44,120 nt of DNA from Enterobacteria phage mEp213. This document shows, piece by piece, positions 30,265 to 34,680 of this stretch. The notes beneath the pieces were generated by a model that was given only the letters and a program-made list of their open reading frames with translations, made no database searches and was not told where the DNA came from. The stretch lies in sequence record NC_019720.1. One strand, 5' to 3'. The position numbers were made by a program, and so were the translations under genes. Position 1 is the first letter of the stretch; the number at the start of each line of letters is the position of its first letter.

Positions 30265-30588
30265 CTATGCGGCCTTATCTACATTCCTGAACCAAACGCA
30301 GATCGGACCGTCTTCTGTATCGTGAATCGAACCGACAAACCATCCTTCTCCATCTGGCATGCTTGGCTCCCATCCACTGATGTTTGGATTCCCATCTTCA
30401 AAATACGCGTCAATTACCGTTTGATTGTTGTCGTTTTCCATTTCAACAATTGATGATTCAATGCCATGCTGCTTGCAGAAATATCTGAACTCATCAGCTG
30501 AAATTGCCTCTCTATCCCCAAACAGGTTGGCGTATTCTGGGTGCGTCCAGTAGCCATCCTCGCTTCGCTCTACTACTAATGCTTCCAT
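30265..30588 (-). CDS. Hypothetical strongly acidic protein (107 aa)
   Basis: About 23 Asp/Glu versus 6 Lys/Arg; stop overlaps a GGCCG-N6-CGGCC hairpin. Confidence 0.45.
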   Translation of the reverse strand: MEALVVERSEDGYWTHPEYANLFGDREAISADEFRYFCKQHGIESSIVEMENDNNQTVIDAYFEDGNPNISGWEPSMPDGEGWFVGSIHDTEDGPICVWFRNVDKAA

Positions 30589-30650
30589 ATATCACCTCAA
30601 ATAAGTGGTTTGCTGCCAAAACAATGAACCATCCGGAAATTCCAGATAGT

Positions 30651-30878
30651 TCATAATTCACTCTTCAATACTTCCAGCTTACTAATCGCCGAAAGATATC
30701 CGCGCTGATAGGGCATCATCATTCCTTCGAGCTTGCCACTTCTTAACTCCTCCCTGAGCAATTGTATTGCTTGATCAATAACCTCTGCCTTAGCGTCCTT
30801 TATGGCTTGCTTGCGGGGCTTTGCTTTCTGCTTTGGCAGATTTCTCAAGCATGATGGAATGTATGTCTGATTCATCAC
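30651..30878 (-). CDS. Hypothetical protein (75 aa)
   Basis: ORF contiguous with the upstream gene. Confidence 0.4.
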   Translation of the reverse strand: MMNQTYIPSCLRNLPKQKAKPRKQAIKDAKAEVIDQAIQLLREELRSGKLEGMMMPYQRGYLSAISKLEVLKSEL

Positions 30879-31151
30879 TTACCTCGCCGTCAGTTGTTTT
30901 GATTTCCGGTATCCTGCCGCGTAAATGGCTACGTTTGGCAGGCAAATACTTCCACTGCATTCTTCTGCCTTCTTGCAGCGAAGGCTTCCGAGTGATGCTG
31001 CTTTGTCTGCTCTGACGCAACCAGAGAGCTTTAGCGCAATTTTTCGCGCCAGTCGCTGTTCTTGCATTGCCTGCTCACGTTGAGCCTGTCTGCGTGCTCT
31101 GCGGCGATTTCTGGCGTTATCGTCAGCCAGATATGTAATGACTACTGTCAT
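30879..31151 (-). CDS. Hypothetical protein with Arg-rich N-terminus and four Cys (90 aa)
   Basis: ARNRRRARRQAQREQ segment followed by a Cys cluster. Confidence 0.4.
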   Translation of the reverse strand: MTVVITYLADDNARNRRRARRQAQREQAMQEQRLARKIALKLSGCVRADKAASLGSLRCKKAEECSGSICLPNVAIYAAGYRKSKQLTAR

Positions 31152-31520
31152 GTTGACCTCCGATGATTGACTTTGGCGGTGACGCGCCGGGTGCTTATCT
31201 TCCGGTTGCCGTCGTGCAGCTGCACTTCACGTCACCCCAAAGCCAACTACTCTTTGACTCACACTCTCGCAGTGAGCGCGCTCATGCCCTTGAGTCTCTG
31301 TCGCTTATTAGCCGCTGATAACCGGTGCGCGTCTGGCATTCGCGCTGCCTTTCCGGAGCATGTTCCCTTATTTACCCTCACATCGGTCTGCTAAACCTGC
31401 TCGCCATTACGCGACTCGGGGCAGCATCATTACTGCTGCATTGCCTTTCGGCTGCGGTCTAACCGCGTTAGTGCACCATTACAGCACCTCATGTTTGGTT
31501 AAACTCAGTTCCCGCATTTC

Positions 31521-31588
31521 GGAGGGCAAAGAAGATTTCCAATAATCAGAACAAGTCGGCTCCTGTTTAGTTACGAGCGACATTGCTC
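31521..31588. repeat. 68-bp direct repeat, copy 2, followed by 8-bp-stem hairpin (31591-31614)
   Basis: 67/68 identical to 30124-30191; adjacent hairpin has a different stem but a loop again beginning CTCG. Confidence 0.9.
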
Positions 31589-31620
31589 ACATAGCAGACT
31601 CGCAAATCTGCTATAGGTGC

Positions 31621-31782
31621 TTATTCGCATCGCATGACAACATCAAATTTTTCGAGATTACTTTGTCGCAACAATCCCTCTTCTACGCGGTCAGCTTTTC
31701 TATAATTATCAAATTCGAAATGTTTAATTACTTCTTTCGTTTCTCGCTCTATAACTTCAACAATGTATTTCTTATTCATCAT
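31621..31782 (-). CDS. Hypothetical small protein (53 aa)
   Basis: ATG overlaps upstream stop (ATGA). Confidence 0.4.
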   Translation of the reverse strand: MMNKKYIVEVIERETKEVIKHFEFDNYRKADRVEEGLLRQSNLEKFDVVMRCE

Positions 31783-32063
31783 TCTTCCCCCAGGGCCTTG
31801 CTGATGGCTGCCTTGGCTCGTTTGTATTCGGTTAACTCTCTGCACCCTTCGTCATGCTCGTAAAGGAAGACAAGCTCTTGCAGTGCTTCAAGCAAATCAG
31901 GAGCTGCTGCTATCAGTAGCGCATCCTCCCTTTCATTTCTTGTTGCTGCTTCAATGTATGTGTCACCAATCGTCACACCATGGAACGTAGTCATCATCTC
32001 GTTGACGTTTCTAACCGTGTACTTCCATTTACCAGGCGTACCCTTAAACTCTTTCATATTCAC
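31779..32063 (-). CDS. Hypothetical protein (94 aa)
   Basis: ORF in pL operon. Confidence 0.45.
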   Translation of the reverse strand: MNMKEFKGTPGKWKYTVRNVNEMMTTFHGVTIGDTYIEAATRNEREDALLIAAAPDLLEALQELVFLYEHDEGCRELTEYKRAKAAISKALGEE

Positions 32064-32111
32064 CTCTGTTGTTTATGCCAAAAGAAGGCCGACTATGCGG
32101 CATAATTATTT

Positions 32112-32300
32112 TTAACTATCATCAATACATGGCACTTTATTCCAGTCGATATCGTTTTTATTGTCGTCCCACATGTCTTTGTTTTTGTATTTCTCGCTAC
32201 ATCCTAGGCAAATGTTGTATGGCCTACCGATAAGGTTTAACGAAATACGTTGCATTTCATTTGATTCAAACATGTATCCACAGAACTGACATTTATGCAT
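32112..32300 (-). CDS. Small zinc-ribbon-like protein (62 aa)
   Basis: CxxC...CxxC pattern (CQFCG ... CLGC); first gene after N. Confidence 0.45.
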   Translation of the reverse strand: MHKCQFCGYMFESNEMQRISLNLIGRPYNICLGCSEKYKNKDMWDDNKNDIDWNKVPCIDDS

Positions 32301-32303
32301 ATC

Positions 32304-32636
32304 TCACCCCTCATACAGTAGCTTACTGCCTAATTTCATTTTCTGGCGACCAACACAAGTCACACCCATTTCACTGCGTGGCTTGCTGTACCATGTGCGC
32401 TGATTCTTGCGCTCAATACGTTGCAGGTTGCTTTCAATCTGTTCGTGGTATTCAGCCAGTACCGTAAGGTCTATCGGATTCAGTGCGCTTTCTACTCGTG
32501 ATTTCGGTTTGCGATTCAGCGAGAGAATAGGGCGGTTAACAGGTTTTGCGCTTACCCCAACCAACAGGGGATTTGCTGCTTTCCATTGAGCCTGTTTCTC
32601 TGCGCGACGTTCGCGGCGGCGTGTTTGTGCATCCAT
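32304..32636 (-). CDS. N: Antitermination protein N (lambda-like)
   Basis: MDAQTRRRERRAEKQAQWKAANPLLVGVSAKPVNRPILSLNRKPKSRVESALNPIDLTVLAEYH matches lambda N from memory; divergent C-terminus. Confidence 0.9.
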   Translation of the reverse strand: MDAQTRRRERRAEKQAQWKAANPLLVGVSAKPVNRPILSLNRKPKSRVESALNPIDLTVLAEYHEQIESNLQRIERKNQRTWYSKPRSEMGVTCVGRQKMKLGSKLLYEG

Positions 32637-32904
32637 CTGGATTCTCCTGTCAGTTAGCTTTGGTGGTGTGGTGGCTGGTAGTCTAGCTCCAGCTTGTTGA
32701 GTCTCATTCGGAGGGGTATAACCGGCACCCCAGCGATTTTTCCATGCGACAACGTGCGCGTTATGGCGGCCTTATCGCCCGCGGCTCCCCATCTCGTCCA
32801 CGCTATTGCTAGCGTTGGGAGCGCTTCACCGCTCAACAGTAGGTAAGCACTTGCCAGTGACTAGCTGGCTTCACCACACCCCAAAGCCTTCTGCTTTGAA
32901 TGCT

Positions 32905-32935
32905 GCCCTTCTTCAGGGCTTAATTTTTAAGAGCG
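32905..32935 (-). promoter_or_regulatory. nutL (boxA CGCTCTTAA and boxB GCCCTGAAGAAGGGC on the - strand)
   Basis: Reverse complement of 32905-32935 gives boxA then boxB as in lambda nutL. Confidence 0.85.
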
Positions 32936-32974
32936 TCACCTTCATGGTGGTCAGTGCGTCCTGCTGATGGCTAG

Positions 32975-33036
32975 ATAATCACAAATTGTGTTCGTGCTGT
33001 CAACACGAAATGTGATTGTTTTTATCACAACACGTG
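32975..33036 (-). promoter_or_regulatory. pL with three CAC-N5-GTG operators (OL)
   Basis: - strand -35 TTGACA (32998-33003), 17-bp spacer, -10 GATTAT (32975-32980); operator dyads at 32980-32990, 33004-33014, 33026-33036. Confidence 0.6.
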
Positions 33037-33124
33037 TTTTCATTGATTTTTAAGGTAATTTAATTTTCTTTGGGCAACAAAAAACCCGCCGAAGCGGGTT
33101 TGATGTTTTTAAGTGGCGGGTATA

Positions 33125-33766
33125 TCAGGAGAATTTCATCATCATCTGCACTGCTACGCCGATTATCTTGCAGTTGCCGTCGATTGGGATCAACGGATAG
33201 GCAGGGTTAAGCCCTTTCAGGTATTTGTTACCGCCATCAATGATTAGCTTCTTGAACGTGGCTTCATTAGCATCTGTCAGCTTCGCAACTACCAGGCTTC
33301 CATTAACGGCTTCCTTTCCAGTGTCGAACAGAACCAGCATACCCTCAGGAACGCTAAGGCCGGTAGGAGCTGTCATTGAGTCGCCCTGAACCCTGAGCCA
33401 GAAGGCGTCACCGACAACGTGACAATCTGATTCATACCACTCATCCACTGCCTGAGGGTTGTACGGCTCTACGGCCTCACTCCATGCACCTGCGCTAACC
33501 CAGCTAATCAACGGAAACTTTTCCCCTGGCTTGTATTGTCCCTGATAGTTGTCGCCAAAAAGCAGTTCTGCCGGAGCGACGCCCAAAGCTTTAGCTATTA
33601 CCTCTGCGTCATCAACACTAACGCTTCTGGTTCCTGATTCATAGTTGCCGATCCGAGATTGTGAAGCCCAGCCGCAAAGCTCCGCCAGAGCCTTCTGTGA
33701 AAGCCCTTTATCTTCCCGTAATCGCTTGATACGCGCGGCGATAGTTTCTGTTCTGTTCATGCGCAT
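33125..33766 (-). CDS. cI: CI-type repressor (HTH plus S24 LexA-like autopeptidase domain)
   Basis: N-terminal HTH (LSQKALAELCG), GDSM active-site serine motif, conserved Lys downstream; divergent from cro; terminator hairpin downstream (33084-33105). Confidence 0.85.
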   Translation of the reverse strand: MRMNRTETIAARIKRLREDKGLSQKALAELCGWASQSRIGNYESGTRSVSVDDAEVIAKALGVAPAELLFGDNYQGQYKPGEKFPLISWVSAGAWSEAVEPYNPQAVDEWYESDCHVVGDAFWLRVQGDSMTAPTGLSVPEGMLVLFDTGKEAVNGSLVVAKLTDANEATFKKLIIDGGNKYLKGLNPAYPLIPIDGNCKIIGVAVQMMMKFS

Positions 33767-33773
33767 TTTATAT

Positions 33774-33837
33774 CACATTCCGTGGTTTAAGGCTTTACAC
33801 GATTTGTGTTGACTATCAATCACAATATGTGTTTAAT
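33774..33837. promoter_or_regulatory. OR region: three CAC-N5-GTG operators with pR (and presumably pRM)
   Basis: Dyads at 33774-33784, 33798-33808, 33821-33831 (spacing 24 and 23 bp); -35 TTGACT 33809-33814, -10-like TTTAAT 33832-33837. Confidence 0.6.
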
Positions 33838-33870
33838 AAAGACTGAGTGAACTAGCTCTTAAGGAAACCT

Positions 33871-34086
33871 ATGAACAACATTGCCAACGAACGGAAAAAG
33901 CTTGGCATCACTCAATCTGCGTTAGCAGGCGCGTGTGGCTGGAACCAGTCCCGCTTAGCTAACTACGAGTCAGGTATCCGGACTCCAGATTTAGAGTCGT
34001 GCCGTCGCCTGGTAAAGGCGCTGAATAAATTGGGGAGCAAGACAACGCTAGATGGCTTGTTCCCGCCGGAACACAAAGCCGCTTAA
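33871..34086 (+). CDS. cro: Cro-type HTH repressor
   Basis: 71 aa, XRE-type HTH (LGITQSALAGACGWNQSRLANYESG), divergent from cI; AAGGAA RBS. Confidence 0.8.
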   Translation: MNNIANERKKLGITQSALAGACGWNQSRLANYESGIRTPDLESCRRLVKALNKLGSKTTLDGLFPPEHKAA

Positions 34087-34094
34087 GACATTCC

Positions 34095-34126
34095 AGCTCT
34101 TACACATCCCAGCCCTGAAAAAGGGC
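34095..34126 (+). promoter_or_regulatory. nutR (boxA GCTCTTACA, boxB GCCCTGAAAAAGGGC)
   Basis: Matches lambda nutR from memory; followed by lambda-like tR1/cII leader. Confidence 0.85.
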
Positions 34127-34205
34127 ATCAAATTAAACCACACCTATGGTGTATGCATTTATTTGCATACCTTCAATCAATTGTTATCTAAGGAAATACT
34201 TACAT

Positions 34206-34484
34206 ATGGTTCGTGCAAACAAACGCAACGAGGCTCTACGAATCGAGAGTGCTTTGCTTAACAAAATCGCAATGCTTGGAACTGAGAAGACAGCGGAAGC
34301 TGTGGGAGTTGATAAGTCGCAGATCAGCAGGTGGAAGAGGGATTGGATTCCAAAGTTCTCAATGCTGCTTGCTGTTCTTGAATGGGGTGTTGAAGACGAG
34401 GAGTTGGCGGAACTGGCTAAGAAAGTAGCCAGAATGCTGACAAAAGAAAAAGCCCCGAAGAACGGCGAATTCTTCGAGGCCTGA
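34206..34484 (+). CDS. cII: Transcriptional activator CII (lambda-like)
   Basis: MVRANKRNEALRIESALLNKIAMLGTEKTAEAVGVDKSQISRWKRDWIPKFSMLLAVLEWG matches lambda CII from memory. Confidence 0.9.
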   Translation: MVRANKRNEALRIESALLNKIAMLGTEKTAEAVGVDKSQISRWKRDWIPKFSMLLAVLEWGVEDEELAELAKKVARMLTKEKAPKNGEFFEA

Positions 34485-34518
34485 TGTAGAAAGACTGGAT
34501 CAATCCACAGGAGTAATT

Positions 34519-34680
34519 ATGACAAAACGTCGTAAGAAATACCAGGAAAAAGAAGAGATTCGACACCCTGATTCACCTGAGGGATTAGTGGTAGCCGCAG
34601 CAAATAACAGGGCGTTCGCAGAGCGCCTTGTTGGTGTTTACAGACTAGCCAAAGCAGGAGTGAAACATGGGCGTCGTTAA
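34519..34680 (+). CDS. Hypothetical small basic protein (53 aa) between cII and O
   Basis: AGGAG RBS 7 nt upstream of ATG; 3' end overlaps the O-like start; below the ORF-track cutoff. Confidence 0.4.
   Translation: MTKRRKKYQEKEEIRHPDSPEGLVVAAANNRAFAERLVGVYRLAKAGVKHGRR

Follow-up and report, generated by a model that had tools for sequence, protein, structure and literature searches.

Genes of the immunity region

The window, that is, the whole 44,120-nucleotide stretch of Enterobacteria phage mEp213 DNA analysed here (NC_019720.1), contains a divergent cI-cro gene pair set between lambda-type N and cII genes. The genes and the terminator of the locus are as follows.

32304..32636, minus strand: N antiterminator gene of lambda type, outside the swapped module (Pfam PF11438, N36, E = 1.7e-26)
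33082..33101, minus strand: intrinsic terminator after cI, an 8-bp stem followed by a T run, 24 bp beyond the cI stop codon
33125..33766, minus strand: cI repressor gene, 213 amino acids, or 211 if the second ATG (33760) is used
33871..34086, plus strand: cro, 71 amino acids, of the 434/P22 HTH_3 type
34206..34484, plus strand: cII gene of lambda type (Pfam Phage_CII, E = 1e-44)

The cI protein possesses the HTH_3 and Peptidase_S24 domains of Pfam, matches the lambda cI structures 3bdn, 2ho0 and 1f39, and aligns with lambda cI along its whole length at 34% identity. Its recognition helix starts with Q36-S37-R38, and its self-cleavage site (A92-G93) and catalytic pair (S130 and K172) align with A111-G112, S149 and K192 of lambda cI. 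The start of the gene has been annotated differently, at 33766 in PV340538.1 and at 33760 in phage CurroJimenez. The immunity transcript ends at the terminator behind cI, and rexAB genes are absent. Cro is a match to Pfam HTH_3 (E = 1.3e-12), while the Pfam search did not place it in the lambda Cro family; it is of the all-helical HTH_3 fold type, in contrast to the lambda Cro fold of its lambda counterpart, and at the DNA level the identity between the two cro genes is at random level. The Cro recognition helix, Q26-S27-R28-L-A-N-Y-E, is similar to its counterpart in cI (QSRLANYE versus QSRIGNYE). The sequence-only reading had described both genes as unlike those of lambda; they are indeed divergent, but cI remains a relative with the same domain architecture. 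The two genes are separated by 104 bp, which hold the operators OR3, OR2 and OR1.

Flanks and limits of the module

32905..32935, minus strand: nutL, with boxB GCCCTGAAGAAGGGC at 32905-32919 and boxA CGCTCTTA at 32928-32935
32956..32969, minus strand: left module joint CATCAGCAGGACGC, the base before the predicted PL start followed by +1 to +13
34095..34126, plus strand: nutR, with boxA AGCTCTTA at 34095-34102 and boxB GCCCTGAAAAAGGGC at 34112-34126
34215-34228, minus strand: PRE cII box TTGCGTTTGTTTGC, read directly from the sequence

On the left side, 94 of 96 positions between nutL and the PL start agree with lambda, in a segment that contains the boxB hairpin, and identity with lambda stops at about 32971. 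On the right side it returns at about 34096 and extends, with 108 of 110 positions identical over 34096-34205, from nutR to the cII ribosome-binding site. The 5' parts of the two flanking genes are also close to lambda, with 251/256 nucleotides identical in N (98.0%) and 182/188 in cII (96.8%). The flanks, previously regarded as lambda-identical, are better called lambda-like: they agree with lambda at about 98% in nutL, nutR, 5' N and 5' cII, but the 3' end of N has diverged, the 3' half of cII is only 50% identical, and about 200 bp of the N leader are substituted relative to lambda. A 60-amino-acid ORF within this leader (32654-32836), listed as hypothetical in CurroJimenez, was taken as spurious, as the stretch behaves as N-leader RNA; it is 100% conserved in many phages.

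Set against lambda, the module appears to cover about 32972-34095. The joint CATCAGCAGGACGC is common to lambda, mEp213 and the phages ECP1 and mEpX1, in the last of which it adjoins OL, and identity with ECP1 starts at 32956. As the alignments place its limits, the module is bordered on the left by this short joint, conserved at the start of PL, and on the right by the cro stop codon together with the nutR boxA. The exchange of an immunity module of textbook type is borne out by the divergent cI and cro between lambda-type nutL/N and nutR/cII, while the interval to which it had been assigned, 32975-33837, holds the operators and cI but omits cro (33871-34086), which is part of the cassette.

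A separate observation concerns a structured RNA, conserved, about 230 nt long and including a mini-ORF, which lies at 31257-31503, 1.5 kb to the left of the cassette, and is apparently undescribed. Over 100 enterobacterial phage contigs contain it, and no credible Rfam match was obtained in 30500-34600 (E up to 1) or in 31200-31560 (E up to 10). When genome contigs were scanned with a 17-base pattern of this RNA, 5 of 120 matches were genuine, those identified being from Enterobacterales, and the others were mostly chance matches in GC-rich genomes. This RNA, which lies outside the cassette, is a more interesting item than the immunity module itself.

Six operators in two groups of three

A pattern scan of the whole window for CAC-N5-GTG recovered the six dyads of the sequence-only reading, at 32980, 33004 and 33026 on one side of cI and at 33774, 33798 and 33821 on the other, so that its account of three dyads per side at 22-24-bp spacing holds at every position. 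Measured between centres, the distances are 24 and 22 bp in OL and 24 and 23 bp in OR. Each dyad lies in a 17-bp site, listed below with its score on a weight matrix that was trained on the 12 mEp213 half-sites and then scored across the window.

32977-32993: OL1 AATCACAAATTGTGTTC, 20.5 bits
33001-33017: OL2 CAACACGAAATGTGATT, overlapping the PL -35 hexamer, 19.6 bits
33023-33039: OL3 TATCACAACACGTGTTT, 20.1 bits
33771-33787: OR3 TATCACATTCCGTGGTT, 15.6 bits, the lowest match of the six
33795-33811: OR2 TTACACGATTTGTGTTG, overlapping the PR -35 hexamer, 16.7 bits
33818-33834: OR1 AATCACAATATGTGTTT, 21.9 bits, the highest match of the six

The consensus of these sites is n-A-(T/A)-C-A-C-(A/G)-N3-(T/C)-G-T-G-(A/T)-T-n. 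They are the top six sites of the matrix (15.6-21.9 bits), followed by a site of 11.1 bits; the check is circular, yet the gap is clear. Another CAC-N5-GTG, at 34141, is not regarded as an operator, because it lies inside lambda-identical nutR/tR1 sequence.

That the dyads arise by chance from the composition of AT-rich promoter DNA, or are bound by a host factor such as CRP, is hardly credible. The bare pattern is indeed not enriched across the whole window, where 11 occurrences were seen against 9.3 expected, and TGTGA and TCACA are also words of the CRP half-site. It is by clustering, not by total count, that the dyads exceed chance: a triplet within 60 bp was produced in none of 300 first-order Markov simulations and has an analytic expectation of about 0.0008 per window, but two are observed. 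Moreover, the dyads occupy the positions of lambda operators for three promoters, and triplets of this kind are present in five related phages as well. CRP in particular is rejected by the arrangement of the half-sites, TCACA...TGTGT around a 3-bp centre, which is the reverse of TGTGA-N6-TCACA. No biochemical characterisation of the mEp213 operators (binding, footprinting or transcript mapping) was found in the searchable literature.

Promoters and operator geometry

32975..33003, minus strand: PL, TTGACA, 17-nt spacer, GATTAT, with TG ahead of the -10 hexamer
33809..33837, plus strand: PR, TTGACT, 17-nt spacer, TTTAAT, read directly from the sequence
33767..33772, minus strand: candidate PRM -10 hexamer TATAAA, proposed from geometry

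PL matches the sigma-70 consensus at 10 of 12 positions and is the sole call of the consensus scan within 32600-34250. Its layout is the same as that of lambda PL, with which it aligns in register, and its predicted start is 32968. The centre of OL1 is 17 bp from this start, equal to lambda; that of OL2 is at -41, also as in lambda, the two OL2 sites being in register on alignment, and that of OL3 is at -63 versus -61 for lambda. PR has the -35 hexamer of lambda PR, at the identical position, and its start is expected at about 33844. Neither the PR -10 hexamer (TTTAAT) nor the putative PRM was called by the sigma-70 scan; PR was missed because position 2 of its -10 hexamer is T, and the PRM -35 hexamer is poor, in line with an activator-dependent promoter. 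PRM would yield a leaderless cI mRNA starting at A33760, and with this start the centres of OR3, OR2 and OR1 lie at -19, -43 and -66, versus -19, -42 and -66 in lambda. Overall, the offsets between operators and promoters are within 2 bp of lambda at PL, PR and PRM, and OR2 matches lambda OR2 at 12 of 17 aligned positions.

Comparison with lambda, 434, P22 and phage 21

The region has the layout of lambda immunity, with divergent cI and cro, a tripartite operator at PR/PRM, and OL at a PL that drives N via nutL. Both phages share tripartite 17-bp operators with 22-24-bp spacing between centres, PL and PR -35 hexamers, and a cI of HTH and S24 domains. The distance between OL1 and OR1, in contrast, is 841 bp in mEp213 versus 2,407 bp in lambda, the shorter distance being due to the absence of rexAB.

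The resemblance extends into the operators, and one may ask whether lambda cI recognises them, so that the phage would share the immunity of lambda, at least in part. The outer half-site A-T/A-C-A-C resembles lambda TATCAC, being equal to its positions 2-6, and OL1, OL2 and OR2 are in register with lambda operators on alignment. Operator positions 7-11, however, are AT-rich in mEp213 and CCGCC-like in lambda; lambda operators score just 1.4-9.3 bits on the mEp213 matrix; and the two cI proteins share just 34% identity. Furthermore, lambda/mEp213/mEp235 triple lysogens and all single and double lysogens have been built, with both the lambda and the mEp213 prophage inducible (PMC3442831), which implies a plating of mEp213 of about 1 on a lambda lysogen. 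Recognition by lambda cI is for these reasons very improbable. The specificity of imm-lambda, with its TATCACCGC-type operators, is not that of mEp213, in view of cI identity and the different operator centres, and heteroimmunity to lambda, as predicted, has been established experimentally in the literature, where lysogens carrying both phages are described.

Among other lambdoid phages, the C-terminal domain of cI is nearest to the 434/P22 group; the whole protein is 54.8% identical to 434 cI and 48-49% identical to the repressors of P22 (C2) and phage 21 (cI). Like those of 434 and P22, Cro is a small HTH_3 protein with a recognition helix akin to that of its own repressor. Nevertheless, 434, P22 and phage 21 are not among the 40 matches listed for the cI DNA-binding domain, and by cI identity and the DNA-binding domain matches listed the specificity is not imm434, imm21 or immP22. 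The operator consensus of 434 is ACAA-N6-TTGT, and the mEp213 operators differ from this type as well as from that of P22.

A probable lambda-style switch

mEp213 is reported to form an immunity group of its own (PMC3442831). The group was defined by phenotype, for which PMC3442831 and PMC11893012 cite Kameyama 1999, and the mEp collection comprises 19 lambdoid immunity groups (PMC11893012). We consider it highly probable that the region described here is the working immunity region of temperate lambdoid mEp213, a bistable switch in the manner of lambda but with a specificity of its own. In this switch, cI dimers would occupy the six 17-bp pseudo-palindromes, three over PL and three over PR and PRM. 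At OL1/OL2 and OR1/OR2, cI would silence transcription leftward through the N operon and rightward through the cro-cII operon; at OR2 it would probably activate PRM, and at OR3 it would repress this promoter. Cro would presumably bind the same six sites with a preference opposite to that of cI. The binding of cI, the order of operator strengths and the activation of PRM are predictions from the arrangement of the sites. RecA-dependent induction is expected, since cI keeps the self-cleavage apparatus of LexA and lambda cI (A92-G93, S130 and K172), and establishment would rely on the lambda-type cII acting at the conserved PRE box.

Occurrence of the cassette in other phages and genomes

Over 1,161 bp the cassette is 100% identical to the mEp213 record PV340538.1, which carries annotations for both cI and Cro. 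The known phage that it matches exactly is mEp213 itself, with its phenotypically defined immunity group. The published mEp213 cI qPCR primers (PMC3442831) both lie inside the cI gene: 5'-TCGCCCTGAACCCTGAGCCA corresponds to the plus strand at about 33371-33390, and 5'-GGAGTGAGGCCGTAGAGCCGT is the reverse complement of about 33453-33473.

Besides mEp213, ECP1 and CurroJimenez possess the cassette, and among 5,426 complete E. coli genomes 14 carry it, with an identity of 98.6-100% in the E. coli prophages listed. In ECP1 it is 98.6% identical but is carried on a different backbone (Hendrixvirinae) with a different N/nut system, composed of a PF25694-type N and its cognate boxB TCCCGCCGAAATGCGGGA on both sides. 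The operator substitutions of ECP1 fall solely at centre positions or at position 15, and CAC and GTG are never hit. CurroJimenez (Bas106), a P22-like Lederbergvirus that forms clear plaques on K-12 (PMC11990801), is 99.8% identical to the 1,161-base query and 100% identical over 32965-34094. As an identical cassette resides in a clear-plaque phage, the cassette alone is no guarantee of lysogeny in every phage-host pair.

Relationship to the mEpX1/VT1-Sakai family

The nearest DNA-binding domains of cI are those of mEpX1/VT1-Sakai, Salmonella S107, Edwardsiella GF-2 and Citrobacter Chris1, with 57-67% identity, and the nearest Cro proteins belong to the same family, with 54-64% identity. Tripartite (A/T)CAC-N5-GTG operators are found in mEpX1, S107, GF-2 and Chris1, and stand in the same frame to a TTGAC(T/A) PR -35 hexamer as in mEp213. 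The operator grammar is not unique to mEp213 but common to the mEpX1/VT1-Sakai family. Binding of lambda cI to the operators of other phages, as described in PMC10742460, concerns VT2-Sakai and Stx2-I, which are outside the mEp213 family.

The family is divided at the first residue of the recognition helix, which is Gln in mEp213 and Chris1 and Pro in mEpX1, S107 and GF-2. The Gln phages have A at operator position 2 in 19 of 20 half-sites and the Pro phages in 15 of 28 (Fisher p = 0.003, for sites related by phylogeny and in part picked by the mEp213-trained matrix); for mEp213 and mEpX1 the counts are 11/12 and 6/12. In lambda, cI Gln44 contacts A2 of the operator, and by analogy Gln36 of mEp213 cI may contact the adenine at position 2.

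The DNA-binding domains of mEp213 and mEpX1 cI are 64% identical, and it might be supposed that the specificity of mEp213 is not distinct, its repressor and operators being interchangeable, fully or in one direction, with those of the mEpX1/VT1-Sakai type, the latter an Stx1 phage. In favour of this, besides the identity of the domains, four of the six operators of mEpX1 reach 15.3-18.2 bits when scored with the mEp213 matrix, overlapping the 15.6-21.9 bits of the mEp213 sites themselves, mEpX1 OR1 and mEp213 OL1 are identical at 15 of 17 positions, and the recognition helices of the Cro proteins of the family are near-identical. The Gln/Pro difference and the position-2 counts speak against it: with A at this position in only 6 of 12 half-sites, five of the six mEpX1 operators have at least one half-site lacking the base that mEp213 cI appears to need. 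mEpX1, which also has extra genes between cI and OL, has been placed in an immunity group separate from that of mEp213 (PMC3442831). Interchangeability is distinctly unlikely, and mEp213 most probably has a specificity of its own. A related and tentative idea, which we regard as unlikely, is that the mEp213 and mEpX1/VT1-Sakai types belong to a single operator superfamily that goes back to a lambda-like ATCAC operator, with specificity residing chiefly in the Gln- or Pro-dependent need for A2.

Implications

The immunity module belongs to an already known, sequenced and annotated phage and is a real but ordinary modular exchange. An explicit map of the operators and promoters of the mEp213 immunity type was not found in print, and the present one is of modest value. 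One OL-cI-cro cassette joined to two N/nut systems via a 14-nt joint provides clean evidence for the module boundary. Also of modest value, the link between Gln36 and A2 could be tested across the family, including the repressor of the Stx1 prophage. If the two types do form one superfamily, cross-repression could be partial or one-way, for example by a Pro-type repressor of Stx1 phage acting on mEp213 operators, and cross-reaction of the Cro proteins would also be conceivable; the pair would then be a natural case in which a change of one residue and one base creates a new immunity group.

Operators, repressor and Cro of the mEp213 cassette

The six CAC-N5-GTG dyads proposed by the sequence-only reading, in two groups of three at 22-24-bp spacing, were all located at their claimed positions by pattern scan, with successive centres separated by 24 and 22 bp in the left group and by 24 and 23 bp in the right group. 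They are listed here as 17-bp extensions of the dyads.

Putative operators
32977-32993, OL1, AATCACAAATTGTGTTC
33001-33017, OL2, CAACACGAAATGTGATT
33023-33039, OL3, TATCACAACACGTGTTT
33771-33787, OR3, TATCACATTCCGTGGTT (weakest match)
33795-33811, OR2, TTACACGATTTGTGTTG
33818-33834, OR1, AATCACAATATGTGTTT

The bare pattern is not enriched over the whole window (11 matches against 9.3 expected), and the decisive evidence is clustering: none of 300 Markov simulations gave even one triplet within 60 bp, where two are observed and the analytic expectation is about 0.0008. The half-site consensus (n=12) is n-A-(T/A)-C-A-C-(A/G)-(A/T); C4, A5 and C6 never vary, and A2 is missing from just one of the 12. 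On the weight matrix made from these half-sites the six operators are the top six sites in the window (15.6-21.9 bits, the next site scoring 11.1), a ranking that is circular, though the gap is large. ECP1, a phage that carries the same cassette, has three substitutions within its operators, at position 15 or at the centre position 10, and none in CAC/GTG. No published map of the mEp213 operators was found, and the literature that mentions mEp213 holds, judging by titles and passages, no molecular study of the immunity region.

Genes and terminator of the cassette
33082-33101, intrinsic terminator 3' of the cI ORF
33125-33766, minus strand, cI, 213 aa, with HTH_3 and Peptidase_S24 domains, between the operator triplets
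33871-34086, cro, 71 aa, HTH_3 protein, right of cI

The rex genes are absent from the cassette. The best matches of mEp213 cI among solved structures are lambda repressor entries, and the protein retains the self-cleavage site A92-G93 and the catalytic residues S130 and K172. Alignment to known immunity types revealed no well-characterised repressor close to it: overall identity is 54.8% with 434, 48-49% with phage 21 and P22, and 34%, over the full length, with lambda. A repressor at least 99% identical is present in only four phage records. The start of cI is annotated in two ways, at the ATG at 33766 (213 aa) in PV340538.1 and at the ATG at 33760 (211 aa) in the P22-like phage CurroJimenez; a leaderless cI mRNA from 33760 is favoured by lambda-like spacing from the TATAAA -10 hexamer, OR2 and OR3. 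A domain search did not place Cro in the lambda Cro family. The recognition helices of Cro (QSRLANYE) and cI (QSRIGNYE) are alike; in the 434 system, like recognition helices let repressor and Cro share operators.

OL1, OL2 and OR2 can be aligned in register with OL1, OL2 and OR2 of lambda. Both phages have A-T/A-C-A-C and G-T-G-x-T at the outer positions, whereas positions 7-11 are AT-rich in mEp213 and CCGCC-like in lambda, and the mEp213 matrix gives the lambda operators low scores (1.4-9.3 bits). The description of this cassette as unlike that of lambda is thus right for specificity but overstated for ancestry.

Identity and distribution of the cassette

Across this region the sequence matches that of Escherichia phage mEp213 (PV340538.1) at 100% identity, and that record annotates the two genes as cI and Cro. 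mEp213 belongs to the Mexican mEp collection, in which 46 lambdoid phages were assigned by experiment to 19 immunity groups (PMC11893012), and its group is distinct from lambda, HK022, mEpX1 and others used in a study that also describes a lambda/mEp213/mEp235 triple lysogen with all the single and double lysogens (PMC3442831). Heteroimmunity to lambda was therefore already established. ECP1 carries the cassette at 98.6% identity, and the P22-like phage CurroJimenez (Bas106) at 99.8% over a 1,161-base query and 100% over 32965-34094. Among 5,426 complete E. coli genomes, 14 contain it. Comparison of cI, cro, operators and flanks supports its interpretation as a textbook module swap, but the phage and its immunity region were known already, and the mosaic is of a textbook kind.

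CurroJimenez is reported (PMC11990801) as forming clear plaques and not behaving as temperate on K-12, despite its 100% identical cassette. Its differences from mEp213 within 32300-34300 all lie outside the cassette, at 32935, 32921 and 32964 and in a different cII, so neither cI and cro nor the operators account for the clear plaques. Position 32935 is the first base of nutL boxA, changed from C to G on the RNA strand.

Module boundaries and flanking regions

On the left, identity with lambda breaks off at about 32971; on the right it picks up again at about 34096. The N and cII flanks had been called lambda-identical; they are lambda-like but include diverged segments.

Flanking segments compared with lambda
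nutL to PL start, 94/96 identical
nutR to cII ribosome-binding site, 108/110 identical
5' part of N, 251/256 identical
5' part of cII, 182/188 identical
32677-32875, minus strand, N leader, about 200 bp substituted between nutL and N
3' end of N, diverged
3' half of cII, diverged

The N leader (32677-32875) is 100% identical in Sf6, HK544, HK446, HK633, mEp043, Sf101 and CurroJimenez. Its fold has a long-range stem of GGCUUUGGGGUGUGGUG and CACCACACCACCAAAGCU (z = -3.65), and the leader is probably an enlarged version of the RNase III-sensitive N-leader hairpin of lambda.

ECP1 combines this cassette with another N gene, of the PF25694 family, with matching boxA/boxB on both sides, and identity between mEp213 and ECP1 begins at 32956. 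A 14-nt string at the PL transcription start, CATCAGCAGGACGC (32956-32969, minus strand), is common to lambda, mEp213, ECP1 and mEpX1, in which it is flanked by differing immunity cassettes or N modules. It looks like a left recombination joint between modules and is a candidate for that role.

Operator family and recognition helix

Among the matches listed, the closest cI DNA-binding domains (57-67% identical) are those of mEpX1/VT1-Sakai, Salmonella S107, Edwardsiella GF-2 and Citrobacter Chris1. In each of these phages three operators of this form occur, placed in the same frame with respect to a TTGAC(T/A) -35 hexamer, and mEpX1 has three at OL too. On the mEp213 matrix, the scores of four of the six mEpX1 operators fall in the range of the mEp213 sites, so that the operator grammar is a family trait and not unique to mEp213.

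The recognition helix begins with Gln in mEp213 and Chris1, and with Pro in mEpX1, S107 and GF-2. In the Gln group 19 of 20 half-sites have A at operator position 2, versus 15 of 28 in the Pro group (Fisher p = 0.003), a correlation that is no more than indicative, as the sites are not independent. It parallels the contact of Gln44 of lambda cI with adenine 2, and offers a simple explanation of why separate immunity groups have been reported. The Chris1 homologue (1501-1881 of its stretch), with a DNA-binding domain 67% identical, has 126 aa and no S24 autopeptidase domain, which implies a different induction mechanism on the same operator type.

Promoter geometry and proposed regulation

Predicted promoters
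33003 down to 32975, PL, TTGACA-17-GATTAT
33809-33837, PR, TTGACT-17-TTTAAT

PL would start at 32968, within ATCAGCAGG, a string that also opens the lambda PL transcript; the lambda start positions in this comparison are those of the lambda record. The PR -35 hexamer is identical to that of lambda PR and in the aligned position. The PRM offsets below take the second cI ATG (33760) as a leaderless PRM start.

Operator centres relative to predicted transcription starts
PL start, OL1/OL2/OL3: mEp213 -17, -41, -63; lambda -17, -41, -61
PRM start, OR3/OR2/OR1: mEp213 -19, -43, -66; lambda -19, -42, -66
PR start, OR1/OR2/OR3: mEp213 -18, -41, -65; lambda -17, -41, -64

As this layout closely matches that of lambda, a lambda-type mechanism, suggested as a whole by geometry and homology, is best supported. 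PL and PR would be repressed by cI dimers at OL1/OL2 and OR1/OR2, while cI at OR2, which abuts a weak PRM -35 hexamer, would activate PRM. Negative autoregulation would operate via OR3, the weakest match, and Cro would act through the same sites as cI. Prophage induction would follow from RecA-stimulated self-cleavage of cI, and establishment would depend on lambda-type cII acting on a conserved PRE box, TTGCGTTTGTTTGC (34215-34228).

A second N gene and a candidate structured RNA

Two further features were observed in the PL operon.

30879-31151, minus strand, second antiterminator gene, ECP1-type N, Pfam PF25694 (N_peptide), in the operon with the lambda-type N
31257-31503, minus strand, candidate undescribed structured RNA of about 230-250 nt

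The DNA with the second N gene (30582-31256) is 97.9% identical to ECP1, whose homologue is the sole N-type gene found in the ECP1 stretch examined. boxA is missing upstream of the mEp213 gene (31152-31560), and the only boxB-like element there is a degenerate hairpin, CCCTCCGAAATGCGGGA (about 31530-31546), so the second N may be an orphan; ECP1 has cognate boxA/boxB on either side of the cassette.

The RNA element is a precise 247-nt insertion, absent from ECP1, between the degenerate hairpin and the second-N leader. Homologues with 77-88% identity are found in Stx2c phages, Hafnia phage yong1, Klebsiella RothC and RothD (where it lies between Q and tRNA genes), a Providencia phage and others, and the element is also present in phages of Kluyvera and Enterobacter. 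A 17-base signature matched at least 120 IMG/VR contigs, and nhmmer detected the element, mostly near full length, in 118 of those listed. It is present in 113 of 5,426 complete E. coli genomes, annotated as RNA in none, and matches no family in Rfam 15. Among 35 representatives (pairwise <93% identical), a 52-pair structure is 94.5% paired, versus 26-39% with partners slid. Changes on both sides occur in 13 pairs and 40 cells, versus 6.1 and 10.1 in shuffles, and none of the 500 shuffles came up to these counts; covariation support for the structure is moderate. The G-U pairs fix the strand as PL sense. Most representatives open with a strong, conserved Shine-Dalgarno, an ATG (TTG or ATT in a few) and a mini-ORF one to about six codons long, whose stop lies in most just ahead of the first hairpin. 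The element is often directly 3' of an intrinsic terminator, and its setting varies between PL leaders that precede an N gene and sites 3' of Q or of lysis genes. This putative RNA behaves like a mobile non-coding "moron", and it merits investigation of its own.
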